Origin: a virus
Taxonomy: Duplodnaviria > Heunggongvirae > Uroviricota > Caudoviricetes
Length of the DNA: 8,443 nucleotides
Reading direction: 5' to 3' (one strand)
Virus record (IMG/VR): IMGVR_UViG_2671180680_000013
A model generated the notes under the pieces. That model was not told where the DNA came from. It did no database searches and saw nothing but the letters and a program-made list of their open reading frames with translations. The position numbers and the translations under genes were made by a program. Shown here piece after piece: positions 1 to 8,390 of this stretch (positions within the stretch are counted from its first letter, which is position 1; the number at the start of each line of letters is the position of its first letter).

Positions 1-2940
1 GTATTAAGACTATCACTTATTTAAGTGATACTGGTTGTCTGGAGATTCAGGGGGCCAGTCTAATTGCCGACGGAAAAACGCTGGTTATTGGCAATACAGA
101 GAATGACGGAGCTGTTGACTCTATTGCTGGTACCGGGTTGATCACCAAAACAGGTTCCGGCGATCTGGTACTTAATGCAGATAACAATGACTTTACTGGT
201 GAGATGCAGATTGAAAACGGTGAAGTTACCCTGGGCCGCAGCAACTCCCTGATGAATGTCGGCGATACGCATTGCCAGGACGATCCGCAAGACTGCTACG
301 GTCTGACGATAGGGAGTATTGATAAGTACCAGAATCAGGCAGAGCTAAACGTTGGCTCCACCCAACAAACCTTTGTGCACTCATTGACGGGCTTTCAGAA
401 TGGCACTTTAAATATCGATGCTGGTGGCAATGTTACTGTTAATCAAGGCAGTTTTGCTGGCACCATCGAAGGTGCTGGTCAGCTCACCATTGCGCAAAAC
501 GGCAGCTACGTGCTGTCGGGGGCGCAGTCGATGGCGCTAACCGGCGATATAGTCGTTGATGATGGTGCGGTGCTTTCGCTGGAAGGCGACGCGGCAGATC
601 TCGCCGCTCTCCAGGACGATCCGCAGTCGATCGTGTTAAACGGCGGTGTGCTCGATCTCTCTGATTTCTCCACCTGGCAGAGCGGCACATCATACAATGA
701 TGGCCTTGAAGTCAGTGGCAGCAGCGGAACGGTTATCGGCAGTCAGGATGTGGTAGATCTTGCAGGTGGCGACAATTTGCATATCGGCGGCGACGGGAAA
801 GATGGCGTCTACGTGGTGGTCGATGCGAGCGACGGGCAGGTAAGTCTGGCAAANNNNNNNNNNNNNNNNNNNNNNNNNNNNNNNNNNNNNNNNNNNNNNN
901 NNNNNNNNNNNNNNNNNNNNNNNNNNNNNNNNNNNNNNNNNNNNNNNNNNNNNNNNNNNNNNNNNNNNNNNNNNNNNNNNNNNNNNNNNNNNNNNNNNNN
1001 NNNNNNNNNNNNNNNNNNNNNNNNNNNNNNNNNNNNNNNNNNNNNNNNNNNNNNNNNNNNNNNNNNNNNNNNNNNNNNNNNNNNNNNNNNNNNNNNNNNN
1101 NNNNNNNNNATGGCTGACAGCAGCGGGCAGCATCAGGATGAGGGTAGCACATTTACTAAAACGGGGGCGGGTACGCTGGAGCTGACCGCCAGCGGTACAA
1201 CGCAGTCGGCAGTACGTGTCGAAGAAGGCACCCTGAAAGGCGATGTTGCGGATATCTTTCCTTATGCTTCGTCACTGTGGGTCGGTGATGGGGCGGCGTT
1301 CGTTACTGGCGCGGATCAGGATATTCAGTCTATCGATGCTACTTCCAGCGGCACTATCGATATCAGCGATGGTACGGTTTTGCGTCTGACCGGGCAGGAT
1401 ACTTCCGTCGCCCTTAATGCCTCATTGTTTAACGGCGATGGGACGCTGGTGAATGCTACCGATGGCGTGACGTTGACAGGTGAGCTTAATACCAACCTTG
1501 AAACTGACAGCCTGACCTATCTTGCCGACGTGACGGTTAATGGTGATCTGACCAATACGTCCGGTGCGGTTAGCCTGCAAAATGGCGTCGCTGGCGATAC
1601 GCTGACGGTAAACGGTGATTATACCGGCGGCGGTACGCTACTGCTCGATAGCGAATTAAACGGCGATGACTCGGTAAGCGATCAATTGGTGATGAACGGT
1701 AATACTGCTGGCAATACCACGGTGGTGGTTAACTCTATTACAGGGATTGGTGAGCCGACATCGACAGGCATTAAAGTGGTTGATTTCGCAGCTGATCCCA
1801 CGCAGTTTCAAAACAATGCGCAGTTCAGTCTGGCAGGCAGCGGCTACGTCAATATGGGAGCGTATGACTACACGCTGGTGGAAGATNNNNNNNNNNNNNN
1901 NNNNNNNNNNNNNNNNNNNNNNNNNNNNNNNNNNNNNNNNNNNNNNNNNNNNNNNNNNNNNNNNNNNNNNNNNNNNNNNNNNNNNNNNNNNNNNNNNNNN
2001 NNNNNNNNNNNNNNNNNNNNNNNNNNNNNNNNNNNNNNNNNNNNNNNNNNNNNNNNNNNNNNNNNNNNNNNNNNNNNNNNNNNNNNNNNNNNNNNNNNNN
2101 NNNNNNNNNNNNNNNNNNNNNNNNNNNNNNNNNNNNNNNTGTTATCGGCGGACGTTATCATTACACGGCGGCAGGGCAACTGGCTNNNNNNNNNNNNNNN
2201 NNNNNNNNNNNNNNNNNNNNNNNNNNNNNNNNNNNNNNNNNNNNNNNNNNNNNNNNNNNNNNNNNNNNNNNNNNNNNNNNNNNNNNNNNNNNNNNNNNNN
2301 NNNNNNNNNNNNNNNNNNNNNNNNNNNNNNNNNNNNNNNNNNNNNNNNNNNNNNNNNNNNNNNNNNNNNNNNNNNNNNNNNNNNNNNNNNNNNNNNNNNN
2401 NNNNNNNNNNNNNNNNNNNNNNNNNNNNNNNNNNNNNNNNNNNNNNNCGCGTGGTTTAGCAATGATGTTTCTGAACATGAAGATGGCACAGATCATTACC
2501 ATTCGTCGGGGATTATCGCCTCGCTGGAAGCCGGGTATCAGTGGTTACCGGGGCGTGGTGTGGTGATTGAACCGCAGGCGCAGGTGATTTATCAGGGCGT
2601 GCAGCAGGATGATTTTACCGCCGCTAACCATGCGCGCGTGTCACAATCGCAGGGGGATGATATTCAGACGCGGCTGGGTTTACACAGCGAATGGCGTACC
2701 GCGGTTGGTGTCACACCAACATTAGATCTGAATTATTATCACGATCCCCATGCGACGGAAATTGAAGAAGATGGCAGCACTATCAGTGACGATGCGGTGA
2801 AGCGACGGGGTGAAATAAAAGTGGGAGTCACGGGCAATATCAGTCAGCGAGTGTCCCTGCGCGGCAGCGTGGCGTGGCAGAAAGGGAGTGATGATTTTGC
2901 CCAGACGGCAGGGTTTTTGTCGATGACGGTGAAATGGTAA
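1..2940 (+). CDS. yfaL: AIDA-I-type autotransporter adhesin (YfaL/EhaC-like), 5'-truncated by the window edge; passenger domain plus C-terminal beta-barrel translocator
   Basis: Frame +3 is open from the window edge to 853 and again 1110-1886. The product is Gly/Thr/Asp/Asn-rich with recurring NGD/TLTG-type motifs typical of beta-helical passenger domains, and ends with a junction-like GAYDYTLVED (1857-1886). After the masks, 2449-2937 (frame +1) reads AWFSNDVSEHEDG...GFLSMTVKW with a terminal Trp, as in autotransporter beta-barrels; stop TAA at 2938-2940. Gene name comes from the recalled locus order yfaL-ubiG-gyrA. The unmasked segments sit in different frames (+3; the 2140-2185 island reads best in +2; then +1), so I cannot assert the gene is intact. 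Confidence 0.8.
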
Positions 2941-2962
2941 TCGCTGTCTGACCATCACAATT

Positions 2963-3045
2963 GCCGGATGCGGCGTAAACGCCTTATCTGGCCTACGGAG
3001 AGCATTTGTAGGCCTGATAAGACGCTGCAAGCGTCGCATCAGGCA
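2963..3045. repeat. BIME: two inverted REP (repetitive extragenic palindromic) units between the convergent yfaL and ubiG 3' ends
   Basis: 2963-2996 gccggatgcggcgtaaacgccttatctggcctac and 3008-3045 gtaggcctgataagacgctgcaagcgtcgcatcaggca are each imperfect palindromes matching the enterobacterial REP consensus (GCC[G/T]GATGCG...GGCCTAC), arranged head to head and separated by about 11 nt. Confidence 0.75.
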
Positions 3046-3067
3046 TTGGCGCGGCCAAACATCAACC

Positions 3068-3811
3068 TCACTTATTCTGCGTGTGCAGCATATAGTTCAC
3101 ATCCACGCCGGGGCCGAGCTTAAAGGAATTAGTGATCGGGTTGTAATGTAGCCCGGTTATATGTCGCTCTTTTAAACTGGTCTGATCCACCCAGCCAAGC
3201 AGCTCTGCCGGTTTAATAAACTTCTTCACATCATGCGTACCTTTGGGCACCATGCGCAAAATATATTCCGCGCCAACCACCGCCATCAGCCATGACTTGC
3301 CGTTGCGGTTAAGCGTCGAGAAAAAGACATCGCCGCCTGGTTTCACCAGTTGCGCACAGGCTCTGACCACTGACTGCGGATCGGGTACGTGCTCCAGCAT
3401 CTCCATGCAGGTCACCACATCATACTGCCCGGCATGTTTTGCCGCGTGCTCTTCCACGGTTNNNNNNNNNNNNNNNNNNNNNNNNNNNNNNNNNNNNNNN
3501 NNNNNNNNNNNNNNNNNNNNNNNNNNNNNNNNNNNNNNNNNNNNNNNNNNNNNNNNNNNNNNNNNNNNNNNNNNNNNNNNNNNNNNNNNNNNNNNNNNNN
3601 NNNNNNNNNNNNNNNNNNNNNNNNNNNNNNNNNNNNNNNNNNNNNNNNNNNNNNNNNNNNNNNNNNNNNNNNNNNNNNNNNNNNNNNNNNNNNNNNNNNN
3701 NNNNNNNNNNNNNNNNNNNNNNNNNNCCCACCAGCGGGAGGCGACGGCTTCAAATTTAGCGATCTCTTCGTGGTCTACGTTATGGTTTTCCGGCGATTTT
3801 TCGGCATTCAT
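3068..3811 (-). CDS. ubiG: bifunctional 3-demethylubiquinone-9 3-O-methyltransferase / 2-polyprenyl-6-hydroxyphenol methylase (ubiquinone biosynthesis)
   Basis: Minus-strand ORF with N-terminus [28 protein letters not shown] and C-terminus ...[19 protein letters not shown]...[20 protein letters not shown]...NYMLHTQNK, matching UbiG including the post-I class I SAM-methyltransferase motifs. Start ATG is the complement of 3809-3811, with GGAG 11 nt upstream on the coding strand. The ORF-track start at 3859 adds 16 residues with no ribosome-binding site and is not used. Stop TGA is the complement of 3068-3070. The SAM-binding glycine-rich motif lies inside mask 3462-3726. Confidence 0.92.
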
Positions 3812-3845
3812 TGGCACTTCTACTCCGTAATTGGCAAGACAAACG

Positions 3846-3874
3846 AGTATATCAGGCATTGGATGTGAATAAAG
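3846..3874 (-). promoter_or_regulatory. candidate sigma70 promoter for ubiG (-10 TATACT, weak -35 CTTTAT, 17-nt spacer, read on the minus strand)
   Basis: The reverse complement of 3846-3851 is TATACT and of 3869-3874 is CTTTAT; the spacer is 17 nt and the -10 lies about 35 nt upstream of the ubiG start. Pattern match only. Confidence 0.25.
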
Positions 3875-3882
3875 CGTATAGG

Positions 3883-3913
3883 TTTACCTCAAACTGCGCG
3901 GCTGTGTTATAAT
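3883..3913 (+). promoter_or_regulatory. gyrA promoter: -35-like TTTACC (3883-3888) and extended -10 TGtTATAAT (3905-3913)
   Basis: A perfect TATAAT at 3908-3913 is preceded by TG at 3905-3906 (extended -10), about 45 nt upstream of the gyrA ATG. TTTACC lies 19 nt upstream of the -10. Shine-Dalgarno GAGGG at 3943-3947 sits 10 nt before the ATG. The gyrA promoter is known to be induced by DNA relaxation, with the -10 region the key determinant. Confidence 0.55.
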
Positions 3914-3957
3914 TTGCGACCTTTGAATCCGGGATACAGTAGAGGGATAGCGGTTAG

Positions 3958-6645
3958 ATGAGCGACCTTGCGAGAGAAATTACACCGGTCAACATTGAGG
4001 AAGAGCTGAAGAGCTCCTATCTGGATTATGCGATGTCGGTCATTGTTGGCCGTGCGCTGCCGGATGTCCGAGATGGCCTGAAGCCGGTACACCGTCGCGT
4101 ACTTTACGCCATGAACGTACTAGGCAATGACTGGAACAAAGCCTATAAAAAATCTGCCCGTGTCGTTGGTGACGTAATCGGTAAATACCATCCCCATGGT
4201 GACTTGGCGGTTTATGGCACGATCGTCCGTATGGCGCAGCCATTCTCGCTGCGTTACATGCTGGTAGACGGTCAGGGTAACTTCGGTTCCATCGACGGCG
4301 ACTCTGCGGCGGCAATGCGTTATACGGAAATCCGTCTGGCGAAAATTGCCCATGAACTGATGGCCGATCTCGAAAAAGAGACGGTCGATTTCGTTGATAA
4401 CTATGACGGCACGGAAAAAATTCCGGACGTCATGCCAACCAAAATTCCTAACCTGCTGGTGAACGGTTCTTCCGGTATCGCCGTAGGTATGGCAACCAAC
4501 ATCCCGCCGCACAACCTGACGGAAGTCATCAACGGTTGTCTGGCGTATATCGATGATGAAGACATCAGCATTGAAGGGCTGATGGAACACATCCCGGGGC
4601 CGGACTTCCCGACGGCGGCAATCATTAACGGTCGTCGCGGTATTGAAGAAGCTTACCGTACCGGTCGTGGCAAGGTGTACATCCGCGCCCGTGCTGAAGT
4701 GGAAGTCGACGCCAAAACCGGGCGTGAAACCATTATCGTCCACGAAATTCCGTATCAGGTAAACAAAGCGCGCCTGATCGAGAAGATTGCGGAACTGGTA
4801 AAAGAAAAACGCGTGGAAGGCATCAGCGCGCTGCGTGACGAGTCTGACAAAGACGGTATGCGCATCGTGATTGAAGTTAAACGCGATGCGGTCGGTGAAG
4901 TTGTGCTCAACAACCTCTACTCCCAGACCCAGTTGCAGGTTTCTTTCGGTATCAACATGGTGGCATTGCACCATGGTCAGCCGAAGATCATGAACCTGAA
5001 AGATATCATCGCGGCGTTTGTTCGTCACCGCCGTGAAGTGGTGACCCGTCGTACTATTTTCGAACTGCGTAAAGCTCGCGATCGTGCTCATATCCTTGAA
5101 GCACTAGCCGTGGCGCTGGCGAACATCGACCCGATCATCGAACTGATCCGTCATGCGCCGACGCCTGCAGAAGCGAAAACTGCGCTGGTGGCTAATCCGT
5201 GGCAGCTGGGCAACGTTGCCGCGATGCTGGAACGTGCTGGCGACGATGCTGCGCGTCCGGAATGGCTGGAGCCAGAGTTCGGCGTGCGTGATGGTCTGTA
5301 CTACCTGACCGAACAGCAAGCTCAGGCGATTCTGGATCTGCGTTTGCAGAAACTGACCGGCCTTGAGCACGAAAAACTGCTCGACGAATACAAAGAGCTG
5401 CTGGATCAGATCGCGGAACTGTTGCGTATTCTTGGTAGCGCCGATCGTCTGATGGAAGTGATCCGTGAAGAGCTGGAGCTGGTTCGTGAACAGTTCGGTG
5501 ACAAACGTCGTACTGAAATCACCGCCAACAGCGCAGACATCAACCTGGAAGATCTGATNNNNNNNNNNNNNNNNNNNNNNNNNNNNNNNNNNNNNNNNNN
5601 NNNNNNNNNNNNNNNNNNNNNNNNNNNNNNNNNNNNNNNNNNNNNNNNNNNNNNNNNNNNNNNNNNNNNNNNNNNNNNNNNNNNNNNNNNNNNNNNNNNN
5701 NNNNNNNNNNNNNNNNNNNNNNNNNNNNNNNNNNNNNNNNNNNNNNNNNNNNNNNNNNNNNNNNNNNNNNNNNNNNNNNNNNNNNNNNNNNNNNNNNNNN
5801 NNNNNNNNNNNNNNNNNNNNNNNNNNNNNNNNNNNNNNNNNNNNNNNNNNNNNNNNNNNNNNNNNNNNNNNNTCGTCAACCTGCTGCCGCTGGAGCAGGA
5901 CGAACGTATCACCGCGATCCTGCCAGTGACCGAGTTTGAAGAAGGCGTGAAAGTCTTCATGGCGACCGCTAACGGTACTGTGAAGAAAACCGTCCTCACC
6001 GAATTCAACCGTCTGCGTACCGCCGGTAAAGTGGCGATCAAACTGGTTGAAGGCGATGAGCTGATCGGCGTTGACCTGACCAGCGGCGAAGACGAAGTAA
6101 TGCTGTTCTCCGCCGAAGGTAAAGTGGTGCGCTTTAAAGAGTCTTCTGTCCGTGCGATGGGCTGCAACACCACCGGTGTTCGCGGTATTCGCTTAGGTGA
6201 AGGCGATAAAGTCGTCTCTCTGATCGTGCCTCGTGGCGATGGCGCAATCCTCACCGCAACGCAAAACGGTTACGGTAAACGTACCGCAGTGGCGGAATAC
6301 CCAACCAAGTCGCGTGCGACGAAAGGGGTTATCTCCATCAAGGTTACCGAACGTAACGGTTTAGTGGTTGGCGCGGTACAGGTAGATGACTGCGACCAGA
6401 TCATGATGATCACCGATGCCGGTACGCTGGTACGTACTCGCGTTTCAGAAATCAGCATCGTGGGCCGTAACACCCAGGGCGTGATCCTCATCCGTACTGC
6501 GGAAGATGAAAACGTAGTGGGTCTGCAACGTGTTGCTGAACCGGTTGACGAGGAAGATCTCGATACCATCGACGGCAGTGCCGCGGAAGGGGACGATGAA
6601 ATCGCTCCGGAAGTGGACGTTGACGACGAGCCAGAAGAAGAATAA
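3958..6645 (+). CDS. gyrA: DNA gyrase subunit A, carrying QRDR substitutions S83L and D87G
   Basis: The ORF translates to [53 protein letters not shown]... with catalytic-region sequence ...[19 protein letters not shown]... and the acidic tail ...[11 protein letters not shown], matching E. coli GyrA as I recall it. Codon 83 (4204-4206) is TTG (Leu) and codon 87 (4216-4218) is GGC (Gly). The GyrA-box region is hidden in mask 5559-5872. ORF length is 895 codons against 875 for K-12; the excess falls inside the mask. Confidence 0.97.
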
Positions 6646-6664
6646 TTTTACTTCTTCATGCCAA

Positions 6665-6687
6665 AAGGGAGCTATCTCCCTTGTTTG
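6665..6687 (+). terminator. possible hairpin just downstream of gyrA stop (7-bp stem AAGGGAG/CTCCCTT, loop CTAT, followed by GTTTG)
   Basis: Perfect inverted repeat 6665-6671 / 6676-6682 with a 4-nt loop; the downstream U-tract is short (GUUUG), so it is weak as a terminator on its own. Confidence 0.3.
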
Positions 6688-6693
6688 AATTGA

Positions 6694-6722
6694 AAAGTCC
6701 AGGCTGCAAAGTCTGGGCTTTT
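6694..6722 (+). terminator. rho-independent terminator candidate for gyrA
   Basis: Stem 6694-6702 aaagtccag pairs with 6713-6721 ctgggcttt (one G-U wobble), with a 10-nt loop gctgcaaagt; the 3' arm runs into TTTT (6719-6722). It lies about 50 nt past the gyrA stop. Confidence 0.5.
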
Positions 6723-6793
6723 GTCGTATTAGGGCACGGTAAAGTTTGGCTGTGCCCGTAAAAAATGGCTGGCTATACACAAGGAATGTGGCA

Positions 6794-8382
6794 ATGAGTG
6801 GTGAAAAAAAGCGAAAGGCTGGCGGTTCTATGGTCTTGTAGGTTTTGGCGCAATAGTACTGCTTTCCGCTGGTGTCTGGGCGTTGCAATATGCTGGCAGT
6901 GGGCCAGAAAAAACGTTGTCGCCGCTGGTGGTGCACAACAATCTGCAAATCGATCTCAATGAGCCGGACCTCTTTCTCGACAGCGACTCTCTGAGCCAGC
7001 TTCCCAAAGATCTCCTCACCATTCCGTTTCTCCACGATGTTCTGAGTGAAGATTTCGTTTTCTATTATCAGAATCATGCCGATCGTCTGGGCATTGAAGG
7101 CAGCATTCGTCGCATTGTCTATGAACACGATCTCACGCTGAAAGATAAACTCTTTTCGTCACTCTTAGATCAGCCCGCGCAGGCTGCGCTATGGCACGAT
7201 AAACAAGGCCATCTTTCACATTACATGGTGCTGATCCAGCGCAGTGGTTTAAGCAAACTGCTGGAGCCATTGTTGTTTGCCGCTACCAGCGACAGCCAGT
7301 TAAGCAAAACGGAAATCAGTAGCATCAAGATAAATAGTGAAACTATTCCTGTTTATCAGTTGCGCTATAACGGCAATAACGCCCTGATGTTCGCGACTTA
7401 TCAGGACAAGATGCTGGTGTTTTCCAGCACGGATATGTTGTTTAAAGATGATCAGCAGGATACCGAAGCCACGGCGATCGCAGGTGATTTGTTGAGCGGC
7501 AAAAAACGCTGGCAAGCAAGCTTTGGCCTGGAAGAGCGTGCTGCTGAAAAAACGCCAGTACGCCAGCGCATCGTGGTCAGCGCCAGGTTGCTGGGTTTTG
7601 GCTACCAGCGGTTAATGCCTTCTTTTGCTGGCGTACGCTTCGAAATGGGTAACGACGGCTGGCACAGTTTTGTGGCGTTAAATGATGAATCCGCCAGCGT
7701 AGATACCAGTTTCGATTTTACGCCGGTCTGGAACAGTATGCCTGCCGGGGCCAGCTTCTGTGTGGTGGTGCCGTATTCACACGGTATTGCCGAAGAGATG
7801 CTTTCGCACATCAGCCAGGAAAACGACAAGCTGAATGGGGCGTTAGACGGTGCCGCGGGGCTGTGCTGGTATGAAGACTCAAAATTGCAAACCCCGCTGT
7901 TTGTCGGTCAGTTTGATGGCACTGCCGAACAGGCGCAATTGCCAGGGAAACTGTTTACGCAAAATATTGGTGCGCACGAAAGCAAAGCGCCAGAAGGTGT
8001 TTTGCCGATAAGCCAGACTCAGCAGGGCGAAGCGCAAATCTGGCGTCGCGAAGTGAGTTCCCGATACGGTCAGTATCCGAAAGCGCAGGCGGCGCAACCC
8101 GATCAATTAATGTCGGATTATTTTTTCCGCGTGTCGCTGGCGATGCAAAACAAAACGCTGCTTTTCTCCCTCGATGACACGCTGGTTAATAACGCCCTGC
8201 AAACACTGAATAAAAACCGCCCGGCAATGGTGGATGTAATACCCACTGATGGCATCGTTCCGCTCTATATCAATTCACAAGGCGTGGCGAAACTGCTGCG
8301 TAACGAAACGTTGACCAGTCTGCCGAAGAATCTCGAACCGGTTTTTTATAACGCCGCACAGGTGATGCTGCCAACTTACTGA
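6794..8382 (+). CDS. yfaA: DUF2138-family exported protein (YfaA-like); reading frame interrupted at an A7 tract (6804-6810) immediately after the start codon
   Basis: ATG at 6794 with AAGGA (6781-6785) 8 nt upstream opens frame +2 (MSGEKKRKAGGSMVL, stop at 6839-6841). From 6805 frame +1 is open to TGA at 8380-8382 and begins KKAKGWRFYGLVGFGAIVLLSAGVWALQYAGSG, a classic signal-peptide or signal-anchor n/h/c pattern. There is no ATG or GTG in frame +1 before TTG at 6883 (the ORF-track start). An eighth A in the tract would join the ATG to the long ORF, giving about 529 aa. Gene name is from the recalled position downstream of gyrA. Confidence 0.6.
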
Positions 8383-8390
8383 TTTAGTGT

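Follow-up and report, generated by a model that had tools for sequence, protein, structure and literature searches.

A one-base deletion early in the Shigella sonnei gene yfaA, and alleles of the same tract in Escherichia coli

The start of yfaA and its two reading frames

The window analysed here is the whole 8,443-nucleotide (nt) stretch of IMG/VR record IMGVR_UViG_2671180680_000013. It is a Shigella sonnei draft contig, identical to GenBank CWUQ01000165.1 (assembly GCA_001258355.1), and carries yfaL, ubiG (minus strand), gyrA and yfaA in that order, bounded by an IS2 end and an IS1 end. The gene in question is yfaA, the first of the yfaA-yfaT-yfaS-yfaQ-yfaP alpha-2-macroglobulin operon, whose reading frame is broken within its first codons. 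The break is best read as a real, inherited one-base deletion, and yfaA as a multi-hit pseudogene in a decaying S. sonnei operon (probability about 0.9). The lesion has been visible all along in the finished reference genome. The features at the start of the gene are as follows.

6781..6786, + strand: Shine-Dalgarno-like AAGGAA, read in the sequence, with a 7-nt spacing to the yfaA ATG (6794-6796)
6794..6841, + strand: residual yfaA start frame, ATG plus 14 codons and then TAG (MSGEKKRKAGGSMVL*), read in the sequence
6804..6811, + strand: A7-G tract, the site of the one-base deletion, from the alignment with intact E. coli
6805..8360, + strand: yfaA body (DUF2138) in the -1 frame, equal to residues 5-522 of the 562-residue protein
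6826..6882, + strand: hydrophobic N-terminal segment FYGLVGFGAIVLLSAGVWA (residues 12-30), from a hydropathy scan

The original prediction, made from the letters of the window, had placed a start at ATG 6794, an A7 run at 6804-6810, a stop at 6839-6841 and, shifted by one base, a frame of 525 codons; all of these were found as described. The codons GAA AAA AAG of the ATG frame hold the A7 run, and the frame closes at TAG 6839-6841. Its first six codons are authentic YfaA and the remainder is out of frame. The long frame, one base behind, runs for 525 codons from 6805 until its stop at 8380-8382 and begins KKAKGWRFYGLVGFGAIVLLSAGVWALQ. It has no ATG or GTG near its beginning, and its first canonical start is TTG 6883.

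The long-frame product is DUF2138/YfaA (Pfam PF09909, E = 1e-266; profile positions 2-522 of 560 on residues 15-522). Since it is homologous to the 562-residue E. coli K-12 protein b2230, which starts at the same ATG, the frame break is not a chance arrangement. The yfaA body is intact except for 4 amino-acid substitutions in 522 residues relative to E. coli UTME-9. The equation of the whole 525-codon frame with yfaA holds up to position 8360; the last 6 sense codons and the stop (8361-8382) are IS1 sequence.

The N-terminus is encoded as KKAKGWR-FYGLVGFGAIVLLSAGVWA-LQ, in which the basic residues K5, K6, K8 and R11 are followed by a 19-residue hydrophobic stretch ending in V-W-A, matching the -3/-1 rule. 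This composition fits a putative signal peptide or signal anchor. Since the Pfam match already begins at residue 15, the hydrophobic segment belongs to the conserved family. Reference YfaA proteins starting downstream and lacking this segment would have told against a broken gene. Instead, the intact yfaA genes of K-12, UTME-9 and DEC5A are annotated from the same ATG, have the tract A7GG and encode the segment. The yfaA gene of the O157:H7 strain SS17 is also annotated from this ATG.

Alignment with intact relatives locates the missing base. They read GAAAAAAAGGCG where the window reads GAAAAAAAGCG, and the slot between GGTG and CGAAAGG holds AAAAAAAGG in the relatives vs AAAAAAAG in the window. 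The ancestral tract is A7-GG, 9 nt between these two flanks. Outgroup tracts are all 9 nt long as well: A7GG in E. ruysiae, A6GGG in E. albertii and AAAGAAAGG in Escherichia sp. MOD1-EC7003. Over the 2.5 kb compared, the alignment of the E. ruysiae locus was poor, and this locus, like that of K-12, was used for the tract and the annotation only.

Judged from this comparison, the ancestral state is in frame, the A-run keeps its ancestral length of 7 and, on balance, a single G has gone from the GG pair. The suggestion that one extra A would restore a continuous gene is right as to the frame and the protein (AAG to AAA is synonymous), but the base that was lost is, by the comparison, a G. A two-step path, in which a G first changed to A and an A was then lost from A8, would be less parsimonious.

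A genuine and vertically inherited deletion changed A7-GG to A7-G in codons 6-7 of yfaA, and we infer that it arose by replication slippage at this short homopolymer tract. Ribosomes starting at ATG 6794 would terminate after 15 codons, and the other 518 YfaA codons, the export signal included, would be left without a usable start.

Inheritance and further lesions in Shigella sonnei

Positions 5873-8443 of the window, yfaA included, are 100% identical to the finished genome of S. sonnei Ss046 (CP000038.1; PMC6562246). Other S. sonnei loci were retrieved by exact match to the 499-residue TTG-started product, which 16 contigs matched. A7G was present in all 8 loci examined (finished Ss046, a 475-kb contig and 6 further drafts), and the Ss046 and 475-kb-contig loci contain no N. 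Because the look-up protein starts downstream of the tract, the agreement among these loci in the tract itself is an independent observation. Four GyrA genotypes occur among them (wild type, S83L, D87Y, S83L+D87G), and A7G is therefore common to distinct S. sonnei sublineages. In the comparison of tract lengths across related genomes that had been proposed, several lengths occur in E. coli (see below) and a single one in the 8 S. sonnei loci.

The GyrA of the window itself carries the classic quinolone-resistance double substitution, S83L (TTG, 4204-4206) plus D87G (GGC, 4216-4218). Of the other loci, Ss046 carries S83L alone, one draft carries D87Y and three have wild-type GyrA.

Beyond the tract, the window contains the following features of the operon and its neighbours.

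8361..8443, + strand: IS1 left end, cutting yfaA after codon 522, a 100% match to the IS1B end in UTME-9
6665..6682, + strand: terminator-like hairpin (AAGGGAGCTATCTCCCTT, T-rich tail) directly after gyrA, parting gyrA from yfaA
1..62, + strand: IS2 end, cutting off the 5' part of yfaL (autotransporter gene), whose match to E. coli yfaL begins at base 63 of the window

The sequence of yfaA ends at 8360/8361, where it runs into the terminal repeat of the insertion sequence IS1, whose transposase was identified by a match to NF033558. The full extent of this second lesion is seen in Ss046 when its locus is mapped against the intact UTME-9 operon: a 768-bp IS1 replaces 3,563 bp and is followed directly by distal yfaS (positions within the retrieved loci: Ss046 11479-12246 vs UTME-9 1801-5363). 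Lost in this event, which was independent of the tract deletion, are yfaT as a whole, 121 nt from the 3' end of yfaA and the leading 2,799 of the 4,515 nt of yfaS (62%), while yfaQ and yfaP are retained downstream. No target-site duplication was found at the IS1 junctions, which argues for an IS1-mediated adjacent deletion or a recombination between two IS1 copies rather than a simple insertion.

The operon is irreversibly damaged in S. sonnei and presumably dead. Restoring the frame would give a YfaA without its last 40 residues, with two partners lost, so on/off switching is moot in this species. In other genomes the same operon bears independent lesions: strain ABWA45 has a one-base deletion further into yfaA (at about the window equivalent of 7313), and yfaS of K-12 (b4500) is annotated as a pseudogene. 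Between the gyrA-terminal hairpin (6665-6682) and yfaA no consensus sigma-70 promoter was found.

At the other end of the window, yfaL, a gene for an AIDA-type autotransporter adhesin, is without its 5' part in S. sonnei (IS2/yfaL junction at 62/63). An rve-domain transposase gene lies just upstream in two S. sonnei loci, one of which is Ss046; the one in the other locus scores as IS2 TnpB (NF006918, 728 bits).

The window also has five runs of N totalling 1,350 bases (854-1109, 1887-2139, 2186-2447, 3462-3726 and 5559-5872), whose lengths differ from the true sequence they replace and are not multiples of three. An apparent second frameshift in yfaL (open reading frames 138..2459 and 1747..2940) and an apparent 895-residue gyrA product were considered and set aside as artefacts of these runs. 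The runs also give a spurious frame split in ubiG.

Tract alleles across E. coli

The tract was surveyed in 5,390 complete E. coli genomes that have the locus, using queries of 81-83 nt and counting exact matches only. A shorter allele-specific megablast query of 44 nt matched nothing, probably through low-complexity masking of the A-run, which would leave no 28-mer seed. Five alleles were counted.

A7GG: in frame (ancestral); 3,227 complete E. coli genomes, exact
A7G: -1; 319 complete E. coli genomes, exact to the 81-nt sequence of the window
A6GG: -1; 64 complete E. coli genomes, exact
A8GG: +1; 2 complete E. coli genomes, exact
A8G: in frame; 1 complete E. coli genome (O157:H7 strain SS17), exact

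Carriers of A7G include the listed O157:H7 references Sakai, EDL933, EC4115 and TW14359 and some enterotoxigenic (ETEC) strains. About 7% of E. coli genomes are frameshifted at the tract and about 93% are unshifted. When genomes were drawn at even intervals from the whole ranking, 4 of 60 lacked one base and the others had the normal length, in keeping with that share. A further tract allele hidden among matches in the 90-95% identity band (466 genomes with one query, about 1,069 with the others) was considered and rejected: these genomes, ST131 among them, have the wild-type length, and the difference in counts between the queries came from trimming of the alignment ends.

The haplotypes around the tract bear on how often A7G arose. 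O157:H7 Sakai (A7G) and O55:H7 DEC5A (A7GG) differ at 2 of 2,466 positions, the indel included; O55:H7 is the closest relative of the O157:H7 lineage. Given this near-identity, A7G arose in place on the O157 haplotype, separately from its origin in S. sonnei. Around the tract, the ETEC genomes with A7G have the haplotype of the intact UTME-9, and S. sonnei is closest to the intact ABWA45. A7G accordingly has at least two independent origins, probably three. A shared origin in S. sonnei and ETEC would require a recombination breakpoint between 6811 and 6857 (within 47 nt of the tract), and the O157 origin is the only firmly independent one.

For A6GG, two or more origins were at first suggested by haplotypes 17 differences apart over 2.5 kb; this was rejected, as within about 500 nt of the tract there is one shared haplotype. 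At least one origin is indicated, and one origin followed by recombination appears equally possible. The single A8G, at 2524-2560 of the retrieved SS17 locus, sits on the O157 haplotype, and the encoded protein is the same as that of DEC5A. SS17 may be a true +A revertant or may reflect a homopolymer read error.

Two observations concern the records themselves. Four chromosomes of species-representative Shigella and E. coli genomes (CP182557, CP182556, CP178302, CP178308) show dozens of small indels over a few kilobases, with A6GG in CP178302; they look like uncorrected long-read assemblies, so that their tract lengths are unreliable. One gyrA-yfaA junction among the roughly 5,390 comes from a supposed plasmid, perhaps a mislabelled or misassembled replicon.

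The 9-nt tract is, as judged from these alleles, a recurrent indel hotspot across E. coli. The simplest reading is that of an ordinary tract prone to slippage, in a weakly selected gene, which fits the other decay of the operon, namely the yfaS pseudogene of K-12 and the yfaA frameshift of ABWA45. On this reading the tract would mutate at ordinary rates and its alleles would then become fixed in lineages, with no back-and-forth switching.

Explanations of the frame break and its significance

The findings agree with genuine pseudogenisation in a Shigella-like genome, one of the explanations first put forward: the genome is S. sonnei, the allele is fixed there and an IS1 deletion follows in the same gene. 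Relatives and outgroups have an intact ancestral open reading frame, translation from the ancestral ATG would terminate early, the lesion is heritable and the operon has further lesions. The case resembles the reductive pseudogenes of Shigella in its species-fixed one-base deletion, in the disruption of the same operon by IS1 and of yfaL by IS2, and in the contig bounded by insertion sequences. It differs in nothing essential, and the only oddity is that the same tract mutated independently in lineages of E. coli. Literature searches on yfaA plus frameshift returned nothing relevant, and those on yfaS and yfaT returned no functional study.

Some points weigh against complete loss of function. 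The absence of a functional product is something we infer from the reading frames. The rest of the open reading frame is almost undamaged, which fits a recent lesion and leaves residual expression possible. In addition, a slippery heptamer at the tract could pass a small fraction of ribosomes into the long frame.

6805..6811, + strand: A_AAA_AAG heptamer, in phase with the ATG frame (GAA AAA AAG); the phase is read from the sequence and slippage on it would be a prediction

Recoding on this heptamer is the alternative that survives best, although it is unlikely. It holds that A7G is decoded at a low level, by -1 ribosomal frameshifting or by slippage of RNA polymerase from A7 to A8, so that the allele would be leaky rather than null; it would apply mainly to the E. 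coli carriers such as O157:H7. The heptamer is correctly phased and the -1 frame is the long open reading frame. A -1 slip would make GCG (6811-6813) the next codon and bring translation into the 525-codon DUF2138 frame; the predicted product, MSGEKKAKGWRF... (MSGEKKAKGWR...), is identical to the wild type; an RNA polymerase adding one A would have the same effect. The long frame is kept open in all A7G carriers examined.

The sequence A_AAA_AAG occurs in 68 E. coli genes (PMC9307594) and ranks with the most shift-prone heptamers of E. coli (PMC4066793, PMC6924986), and in one vector context a C_AAA_AAA close to the start codon rescued one-base deletions at up to 60% (PMC1851650). However, for the three best V_VVA_AAG heptamers frameshifting is about 0.3% when stimulators are missing and does not exceed about 3.7% in an optimal 3' context (PMC4066793), and frameshifting on A_AAA_AAG is greatly reduced without the dnaX stem-loop (PMC6924986). 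Stimulators of this kind were not found around yfaA. The fold of the 79 nt downstream (-17.2 kcal/mol vs a shuffle mean of -21.3, z = +1.6) is no better than that of shuffled sequences, and there is no Shine-Dalgarno-like element 10-14 nt upstream, the only one being the initiation site, 18 nt upstream. The A-run of 7 is also shorter than the runs of nine A/T at which counter-selection against transcriptional slippage is typically evident (PMC1088944). The shifted arrangement is moreover derived and not conserved, as the outgroups and most E. coli are unshifted, and in S. sonnei the product would still be C-terminally truncated and its operon partners gone.

Compared with dnaX-type -1 frameshifting, yfaA has the identical heptamer in phase and a -1 frame that enters a long open reading frame. 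It differs in being without a Shine-Dalgarno-like stimulator at 10-14 nt or a downstream hairpin and in being derived and lineage-specific, and the expected efficiency would be below a few per cent. With slippage-rescued frameshifts (C_AAA_AAA in pDEST17, compensated indels, poly(A) slippage) it shares a one-base deletion by an A-rich run near the start, but the rescue of yfaA is hypothetical, the A-run is shorter than 9 nt and rescue would be pointless in S. sonnei, where the operon is deleted.

Low-level slippage at yfaA is physically plausible on the phase of the heptamer; it would be irrelevant in S. sonnei and at most a curiosity in E. coli with an intact operon. Still more speculative, and quite unlikely, is the idea that in those E. 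coli (O157:H7, some ETEC) A7G, the commonest mutant allele of this tract at codons 4-7, is a 'leaky-off' state, with expression lowered by at least 2 orders of magnitude yet not abolished and revertible by +A, perhaps as in SS17. If the heptamer did give a measurable rescue, yfaA would be a natural example of a leaky frameshift allele, with a small expected effect.

Slipped-strand phase variation, which would make yfaA a contingency locus that reversibly switches an exported protein, had been raised from the start and is very unlikely. As in the contingency loci of Neisseria, Haemophilus and Campylobacter, a homopolymer lies in the first codons of a (predicted) exported protein, one-base changes toggle the frame and several lengths exist. 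The five alleles in both frames (A7GG, A7G, A6GG, A8GG, A8G) are found at the species level only, and SS17 carries the frame-restoring A8G on the O157 haplotype. Against this, the alleles are fixed within lineages, including all 8 S. sonnei loci with their four gyrA genotypes, and the in-frame A8G was seen once vs 319 A7G, with an extra A that a read error in the homopolymer could explain. Proven contingency loci have longer tracts than a run of 7, a length that is short for high-frequency slippage, and this also holds for the A7 plus G2 tract of yfaA. The tract differs further from those loci in that it is lineage-stable, that the deletion lies in the GG and not in the A-run, which keeps its ancestral length, and that there is no sign of high-frequency reversible switching. 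A restored frame in S. sonnei would in any case still be truncated, with yfaT and most of yfaS deleted.

A YfaA that starts downstream, and so lacks its N-terminus but still functions, is highly improbable. Public annotation is what speaks for it: the Prokaryotic Genome Annotation Pipeline (PGAP) lists the A7G and A6GG yfaA genes as intact, with 542 residues, from a non-canonical ATA (window equivalent 6853, IALLSAGVWA...), and the Sakai record starts yfaA at a downstream GTG. Yet ATA is a very poor initiator, and no Shine-Dalgarno-like sequence lies upstream of it. Such products would be without the charged n-region and would keep at most part of the hydrophobic segment, which is covered by the conserved DUF2138 profile; their export is improbable. 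The chosen starts have the look of a fallback of the annotation pipeline.

A homopolymer sequencing or assembly error over an intact yfaA start is scarcely credible, for although the window is a low-quality draft with many N and the four chromosomes named above are indel-rich at the locus, the identical tract occurs in Ss046, in the 475-kb contig and 6 more drafts, 319 complete E. coli genomes of many laboratories match it exactly, and the A-run is of normal length, the missing base being a G.

The reading of yfaA as an inherited, multiply hit pseudogene has modest consequences for the window itself, where it adds one more decayed S. sonnei gene, consistent with the known reductive evolution of Shigella, and matters little. 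Its wider bearing is on annotation and on the operon. Public annotation hides the frameshift, so that about 7% of E. coli yfaA genes will be misclassified when pseudogenes are counted or pan-genomes analysed. The repeated hits at the tract, together with the yfaS pseudogene of K-12, indicate that the yfa alpha-2-macroglobulin operon is often dispensable.

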